Part shown: piece after piece, positions 10,691-12,559 of the stretch
How positions within the stretch are numbered: the first letter of the stretch is position 1
Layout of the letters: the number at the start of each line of letters is the position of its first letter
Assembly (NCBI GenBank): GCA_964016885.1
Contig: CAXHJY010000926.1
Location: 1-28,275 of the forward strand
DNA from: Eledone cirrhosa
Taxonomy: Eukaryota
DNA length: 28,275 nucleotides
Direction: 5' to 3'
The notes under the pieces: generated by a model
What the model was told of the DNA's origin: nothing
The model's database searches: none
What the model saw: only the letters and a program-made list of their open reading frames with translations
Made by a program: the position numbers and the translations under genes

Positions 10691-12559
10691 CTTTATACAC
10701 AGTGTAGCTGGTAAGATCGCGCTGTCCAGAACAGGCTACTATCCGCGGACGACTTCTTTTATTTTCTCTGCTTTATAAACAGTGTAGCTGGTAAGATCGC
10801 GCTGTCCAGAACAGGCTACTATCCGCGGACGACTTCTTTTATTTTCTCTGCTTTATAAACAGTGTAGCTGGTAAGATCGCGCTGTCCAGAACAGGCTACT
10901 ATCCGCGGACGACTTCTTTTATTTTCTCTGCTTTATAAACAGTGTAGCTGGTAAGATCGCGCTGTCCAGAACAGGCTACTATCCGCGGACGACTTCTTTT
11001 ATTTTCTCTGCTTTATAAACAGTGTAGCTGGTAAGATCGCGCTGTCCAGAACAGGCTACTATCCGCGGACGACTTCTTTTATTTTCTCTGCTTTATAAAC
11101 AGTGTAGCTGGTAAGATCGCGCTGTCCAGAACAGGCTACTATCCGCGGACGACTTCTTTTATTTTCTCTGCTTTATAAACAGTGTAGCTGGTAAGATCGC
11201 GCTGTCCAGAACAGGCTACTATCCGCGGACGACTTCTTTTATTTTCTCTGCTTTATAAACAGTGTAGCTGGTAAGATCGCGCTGTCCAGAACAGGCTACT
11301 ATCCGCGGACGACTTCTTTTATTTTCTCTGCTTTATAAACAGTGTAGCTGGTAAGATCGCGCTGTCCAGAACAGGCTACTATCCGCGGACGACTTCTTTT
11401 ATTTTCTCTGCTTTATAAACAGTGTAGCTGGTAAGATCGCGCTGTCCAGAACAGGCTACTATCCGCGGACGACTTCTTTTATTTTCTCTGCTTTATAAAC
11501 AGTGTAGCTGGTAAGATCGCGCTGTCCAGAACAGGCTACTATCCGCGGACGACTTCTTTTATTTTCTCTGCTTTATAAACAGTGTAGCTGGTAAGATCGC
11601 GCTGTCCAGAACAGGCTACTATCCGCGGACGACTTCTTTTATTTTCTCTGCTTTATAAACAGTGTAGCTGGTAAGATCGCGCTGTCCAGAACAGGCTACT
11701 ATCCGCGGACGACTTCGTTTATTTTCTCTGCTTTATAAACAGTGTAGATGGTAAGCTCATATTGTCCAGAACCAGTACTGCCCGCGGTCAGCTTAGTTTA
11801 GTCTCTCTGCTTTATAAGCAGTGTAAGTGGTAAGCCCGCATAGTCCACAACCAGCAACTGCCCGCTGCTGACCTCGGGTATACTCTCTGCTTTATAAACA
11901 GTGGGGTTGGTAAGCTCGCACTGTCCAGAACCAGCTACTACCCGCGGTCGGCTTCGTGTATTCTCTGTGCTTTATAAATAGTGTAGTTGGTAAGGTCGCA
12001 CTGTCCAGAACCAGCTACTATCCGCGGTCGGCTTCGTGTATTCTCTCTGGTTTATAAATAGTGAAGCTGGTAAGCTCACACTGTCCAGAACCAGCTACTA
12101 CCCACGGTCGGCTTCGTGTATTCTCTCTGCTTTATGAATAGTGAAGCTGGTAAGCTCGCACTGTCCAGAACCAGCTACTACCCGCGGTCGGCTTCGTGTA
12201 TTCTCTCTGGTTTATAAATAGTGAATCTGGTAAGCTCGCACTCTCCAGAACCAGCTACTACCCGCGGTCGGCTTCGTGTATTCTCTCTGCTTTATAAATA
12301 GTGAATCTGGTAAGCTCGCACTCTCCAGAACCAGCTACTACCCGCGGTCGGCTTCGTGTATTCTCCCTGCTTTATAAATAGTGAAGCTGGTAAGCTCGCA
12401 CTGTCCAGAACCAGCTACTACCCGCGGTCGGCTTCGTGTATTCTCTCTGGTTTATAAATAGTGAAGCTGGTAAGCTCGCACTGTCCAGAACCAGCTACTA
12501 CCCGCGGTCGGCTTCGTGTATTCTTTCTGCTTTATATATAGTGAAGCTGGTAAGGTCGC
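10691..12559. repeat. 80-bp tandem array, ~23.4 units
   Basis: Unit ctttataaacagtgtagctggtaagatcgcgctgtccagaacaggctactatccgcggacgacttcttttattttctctg. There are 13 near-identical units (10691-11730), 2 divergent units (11731-11889) and 8.4 variant-B units (11890-12559). Confidence 0.98.

Follow-up and report, generated by a model that had tools for sequence, protein, structure and literature searches.

We found that the window, which is the entire 28,275-bp contig of a 3.0-Gb assembly and consists mostly of microsatellites and dispersed repeats, carries an array of 80-bp units that we predict, with a probability of about two in three, to be a passive single-locus minisatellite, in which a splice-like motif would have arisen by chance and been copied along rather than spliced. 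The array runs head-to-tail, is single copy in the assembly and displays, at the copy number given in Table 1, four old lineages and two homogeneous blocks. The idea that it forms a chain of 72-nt introns, as the original prediction had it, is on balance unlikely, as the evidence from the sequence leans against it.

Table 1. Features of the array and its edges, with positions in the window
Feature	Position	Strand	Basis or expectation
Additional GTAAGCT, in register 79 bp upstream of the array's first GTAAG	10632..10638	+	chance ~0.002
Inverted repeat of 8 bp across the left array boundary	10682..10704	.	expectation of 0.3 in 521-base shuffles
Minisatellite (predicted passive), single-locus, 80-bp unit, 23.4 copies	10689..12559	+	TRF: 94% matches, 0% indels
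First splice-like cassette, CAG/TGTAGCTG/GTAAG, recurring in every unit	10700..10715	+	pattern match
Block A: 12 identical units and 1 unit with 2 differences	10711..11750	+	unit comparison
Two diverged units, with 19-23 differences to block A and 14-20 to block B	11751..11909	+	unit comparison
Block B: 8 related units with 1-6 mutual differences, and a terminal partial unit	11910..12559	+	unit comparison
Retroelement-like dispersed repeat remnant, 88 bp, bounding the array on the right	12559..12646	-	~80% identity with at least 40 further sites

The 23 full units amount to 12 distinct sequences, which fall into four deep lineages that are 12-23 differences apart. The two units between the blocks look old and diverged, and the first of them shows a 1-nt deletion and additional AGs close to the acceptor. 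We propose that a short, old array grew via slippage or unequal exchange, that two of its units would have expanded separately, with the expansion of block A likely being recent and that of block B probably earlier, and that a deletion or rearrangement may have joined the right end of the array to a truncated retroelement remnant. The motifs of the founding unit would then recur in all copies, with about half of the columns simply being unmutated so far. Positions 58-72 of the unit form a near-palindrome around TTTATAAA, which is more perfect in the unit at 11807 and hints at template switching.

Own-genome DNA and pattern searches matched the unit solely on this contig; in one own-genome search, 20 of the 21 matches fell on it, and around the remaining lone match there was no further likeness to the unit among the matches listed. 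In the left flank (10192..10688), the searched pieces 10192-10425 and 10540-10688 are without another match in the assembly. On these searches, we rejected both a dispersed satellite and a transposon-internal array. One 26-letter pattern gave 0 matches in the viral collection and 0 in the metagenome collection. In three runs of one sample, covered as contigs only, which behave like long-read DNA and are probably the assembly's own and hence not independent, the word depth of the A unit in run X1 is 70.8 against 5.65 in the flank; this ratio of 12.5 fits the 12-13 assembled A copies, so that DNA depth agrees with copy number. One of the three runs has zero cover. The left array junction is confirmed in these runs, and the right one is bridged by no piece among those listed, which proves nothing.

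The feature that drew attention to this array is an acceptor-like YAG, an 8-nt putative exon with TG at either end and a GTAAG donor in each unit. The pattern YAG-TG-NNNN-TG-GTAAG (Y being C or T) is indeed invariant in 24 of 24 occurrences on the + strand (10700-12539), with none on the - strand. The seven exon cores (TAGC, TAGA, TAAG, GGGT, TAGT, AAGC and AATC), the split of YAG into CAG in block A and mostly TAG in block B, and the variants of the preceding TATAAA are all as the original prediction described them, and the joined 8-nt exons do run into stops in all three frames. Its 72-nt intron spacing stands for the 22 of 23 intervals that are 80 bp and fails at one of 79 bp, where the 'intron' (11751-11821) is 71 nt. 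A 3-nt exon from the inner TAG or AAG was rejected as not conserved across units. Upstream of the acceptor, 11-15 of the 16 positions from -30 to -15 are pyrimidines, UGC is found at -14 in nine of the 12 distinct units, downstream of the UC-rich tract, and an AG-free zone of 47-48 nt is seen in 11 of the 12. A branch-point scan of the distinct units found YTRAY in one of them (CTGAC) and CTAAY in none of the 12. The placement of the pyrimidine tract implies a donor-to-branch distance under ~42 nt; a distance below 50 nt is given as the limit for steric interference in human in the available text of PMC5740500, and may not hold in this animal.

The invariance of these motifs is weaker evidence than it appears, since 12 of the 23 units share one sequence, the deep lineages number only four and 39 of the 80 columns are equally invariant. 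Among these columns are two blocks outside the splice signals, at positions 15-22 and 59-66 of the unit, and the number of invariant columns compares with ~42 expected if the 52 parsimony steps were spread evenly. With the splice positions taken as fixed in advance, zero change at GTAAG and AG has a P of 0.005 across all units, 0.017 across the four lineages and 0.013 by a Poisson model on parsimony steps, and including the exon's last G brings these values to 0.002, 0.009 and 0.007, respectively. GT and AG by themselves are not significant (P = 0.05-0.10), and an unchanged run of at least seven columns anywhere in the unit has a P of 0.24. The four exon-core columns, with 10 of the 52 steps, vary more than any other window (position-free P 0.013), it being understood that gene conversion inflates step counts and that the splice-favoring features were chosen after looking. 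Among 20,000 shuffled units bearing the observed mask, an invariant donor and acceptor cassette arises in 0.1-0.4%, and in 0.04% when the exon's last G is required. The check that the original prediction proposed, namely per-position conservation, thus comes out in its favor for the units of the array: the splice positions are better kept, with a modest excess (P about 0.01), and the chain-of-introns idea is accordingly not refuted. This modest excess is within chance for a few arrays per genome. The UGC and UC tract, the AG-free zone, the upstream donor and the unchanged sites together strain pure chance, and the splice reading is kept alive by the variable core, the unchanged splice sites, the acceptor features and the upstream GTAAGCT. 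A lesson of this array is that, in tandem repeats, the invariance of a motif needs to be counted by lineages, not copies.

The genomic background offers a measure of how readily such cassettes arise. Among 40,000 random genomic 80-mers, 6.1% have a donor and a YAG, 0.6% also have a pyrimidine tract and an AG-free zone, which equals the splice-likeness of this unit apart from its UGC, and 0.07% have UGC in addition. A 1-Mb sample, drawn as 100 stretches from five small chromosomes, yielded 58 complex minisatellites, of which 20 are diverged, with GTRAG in 8 and a YAG..GTRAG cassette in 4. The cassette is invariant in two of the 58, both of one 75-bp family, and in none of the 20 comparably diverged arrays; this last result counts against the passive reading, although only one of the 20 had any cassette. 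Extrapolation from these small chromosomes, at 20 diverged arrays per Mb, roughly suggests that 2-6 look-alikes would arise in a genome by chance, or 0.3-0.7 if UGC is required. As a passive minisatellite, the array would be of little importance, as one of the ~58 arrays of this kind that the sampled chromosomes contain per Mb. The sampled arrays include a 75-bp one (L116:1-1581 and 3953-5627) with YAG..GTGAG invariant on one strand, GGTAAGG on the other and 92% of its columns invariant, and a 71-bp one (L121:4127-5732) in which 22 of 22 units differ (72% matches by TRF). The full YAG-TG-NNNN-TG-GTAAG pattern is found 100 times within a 3,001-bp stretch of C1 made up of an unrelated 17-bp repeat, whose 'introns' would come to 9 nt; this minisatellite (L071; C1:19261400-19264400) switches strand ~100 bases into the locus. 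The geometry of GGTAAG, 64-66 nt, AG, 8 nt and GGTAAG, repeated twice, has 213 genome-wide matches against 243 for a reversed control, both being counts of matches and not of loci, and the AG-8 nt-GGTAAG geometry belongs to purine-rich satellites on C1 among the 100 matches listed. Inside the window, a dispersed repeat at 14245-14610, which shares 71-89% identity with at least 39 further sites, contains TTTAG/9 nt/GTAAGT, a further chance micro-exon pattern.

We regard as unlikely the reading in which the array comprises 24 eight-base micro-exons with neural-type acceptors that selection would have kept, and whose splicing would either take them singly into a host mRNA, so as to exchange a patch of two residues, or join them in a non-coding chain. 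If true, it would amount to an exon cassette growing like a minisatellite, an unusually compact exon array with an 80-bp period and non-3n exons, and a natural test of spliceosome choice among dozens of near-identical sites. Spliced one at a time, which we hold to be very unlikely, a host transcript would take a single 8-nt exon, with the short donor-to-branch distance and the non-3n length enforcing exclusivity. Steric interference below 50 nt and non-3n lengths are both presented as routes to mutually exclusive splicing in the available portion of PMC5740500, and the unchanged splice positions, the most variable exon core and the eMIC-like acceptor features all fit such a cassette. All seven variants are open in a phase-2 frame, where they would encode the dipeptides VA, VD, VS, GV, VV, EA and ES, but this frame (GNN, NNT) is incapable of a stop and its openness is therefore no evidence. 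The upstream donor at 10632 would instead give phase 0, where the exons of block B open with TGA, and ahead of that donor the phase-2 frame is closed. A cassette of this kind is further disfavored by the absence of the CUAAY branch point and by the twelve identical copies, which add nothing to its diversity. In mutually exclusive tandem exon clusters, any member is in one open frame with the constitutive exons on either side, and no such flanking exons were found within the 28-kb contig, including by a Pfam scan of 129 ORF pieces.

Searches for coding potential and for a host gene bear on these readings as well. The six frames of the unit display no purifying coding signal, with synonymous and non-synonymous counts near neutral, and no paralogue was found in the genome. 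No credible homologue was recovered from a library of 1.8 billion proteins; two matches in it were rejected as translated unrelated repeats whose score sums weak matches of 19-23 bits each by BLASTP. Scanning of 129 of the 289 candidate ORF pieces (the longest, with array repeats dropped) found no Pfam exon near the array; its sole returns were one match at E 0.0099 and, on the - strand at the far end, a C2H2 fragment. This zinc-finger fragment is degenerate (28115-28273, -; Pfam zf-C2H2_6, E 1.9e-5), and lies at the contig end on the strand opposite to the cassette. In the left flank there is no open frame with a good acceptor, and the upstream ATG frame (MKILVSFV and a stop) closes immediately.

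A related possibility, which we judge to be decidedly unlikely, is that of a 'mirage' repeat, whose founding unit would derive from a genuine micro-exon or exon end of a gene with its other exons off-contig or non-coding; a single copy would be in use, with all others being silent pseudo-sites. Repeats of this type are on record for genes of amphioxus (PMC3087553) and human (PMC1557585). With 7 of its 9 positions matching U1, the donor favors this origin, as does the start of the array just before the acceptor, whereas the first copy is devoid of the pyrimidine tract, which elsewhere is supplied by the end of the preceding unit. The above scans of the left flank and of the 129 ORF pieces found no host exon, and silent copies fail to explain the better-kept splice positions.

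The other form of the splice reading, and the model of the original prediction, is a non-coding + strand transcript from which 72-nt introns would be removed in a chain or which would act as a U1/U2AF decoy; we consider it very improbable. A non-coding product would tolerate both the stops and the freely drifting exon core, and the upstream GTAAGCT, a donor motif with a background rate of 0.0007-0.0008 per site for its GTAAG, would open a first intron 71 nt in length. This would-be intron, however, is purine-rich with several AGs and has no detectable homology to the unit; an older, diverged unit at this place was rejected, as 97% and 69% of shuffles score equally to its middle part against A and B, respectively. 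The lack of a branch-point consensus also counts against the chain, as does the commonness of a like geometry in unspliceable satellites. On folding, 11 array introns gave z from -0.87 to +1.44 with no hairpins, and 0 of 14 pairs in the introns are compensatory. This rules against the suggestion that the introns give rise to small RNAs, and we rejected a structured RNA, ribozyme or mirtron in the absence of a conserved fold, hairpin or covariation. The end-to-end hairpin with covariation that typifies mirtrons and structured intronic RNAs is thus missing, and Rfam gave no credible family, its sole match being a chance CrcZ in the A-rich flank.

At the right edge, the remnant that abuts the array belongs to an element most copies of which have a sharp end beside a TA run, with the window copy being devoid of the terminal ~25 nt. 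Its copies (L039-L047 and L086-L115) share the sharp end by (TA)n or (CA)n and vary in extent on the other side. The longer ones encode broken GIY-YIG-like frames, which, from our reading of the translations, we take to be of the Penelope-like GIY-YIG type; Pfam and the Atlas gave no confirmation of this identity. It is extremely improbable that the cassette is itself a degenerate end of this retroelement, amplified across the insertion junction. The last array copy does run directly into the remnant, BLAST extended the alignment of one copy 26 nt into the unit, and this 26-mer has z = 2.2 with its TA run (30 of 1000 shuffles), but without that run 305 of 1000 shuffles score equally. A profile of 35 of the 39 copies (four with broken ends were dropped) stops before the cassette, where it scores 58.5 bits and shuffles average 59.5 (193 of 300 are as good), and appears to largely refute such an origin. 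Elsewhere in the window, there are long fold-back (inverted) duplications at 12732-13062, 13630-13880 and 22860-23520, and clusters at 7960-9140 and 15800-16290 of what is presumably a SINE-like repeat of octopus genomes, by which the contig looks octopod-like.

The array invites comparison with several known systems. Neural microexons that depend on eMIC/SRRM4 are characterized, in the available text of PMC8797185, by UGC near the 3' site, a UC-rich tract, a long AG-free zone and a strong CUAAY branch point. The first three are seen here; unlike those microexons, the array is without a CUAAY branch point or a host gene found for it, is tandem with very short spacers, and is known from DNA alone. 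With the Schistosoma micro-exon genes it shares a run of very short exon-like segments, but as the accessible part of PMC10526429 describes them, those exons are mostly multiples of three, set apart by introns of 0.1-5 kb and accompanied by an N-terminal signal peptide, whereas here the segments are 8 nt, the spacers 71-72 nt and there is no reading frame (stops in three frames), such that the defining features fail. Closer in kind are the amphioxus mirage minisatellites (Adh3 and the globins BflGb6/BflGb9; PMC3087553) and the 37-bp VNTR of human F7 intron 7 (PMC1557585), whose repeat units carry splice signals and, going by the available portions of these two papers, copy one exon boundary of a known expressed gene. 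In contrast, the unit here has both acceptor-like and donor-like sites, and a host gene was not found in the contig; since membership among the mirages requires such a gene, the mRNA of which is spliced normally past the copies, the array only resembles them. The ABCA7 VNTR is reportedly another tandem repeat with splice signals in its units. Our literature search found nothing on micro-exon tandem duplication minisatellites or on a VNTR with a splice donor per unit, which is weak evidence of absence. Single-locus minisatellites or VNTRs with variant repeats, a class that varies in copy number between individuals, constitute the general class. The array shares with them its head-to-tail units in the 10-100 bp range with variant repeats, its restriction to one locus rather than a dispersed satellite family, and its homogenized blocks beside diverged units, the turnover features being those given in the available part of PMC3087553. 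There is no essential difference between them in these respects, and by the features examined this array is an ordinary member of the minisatellite class.
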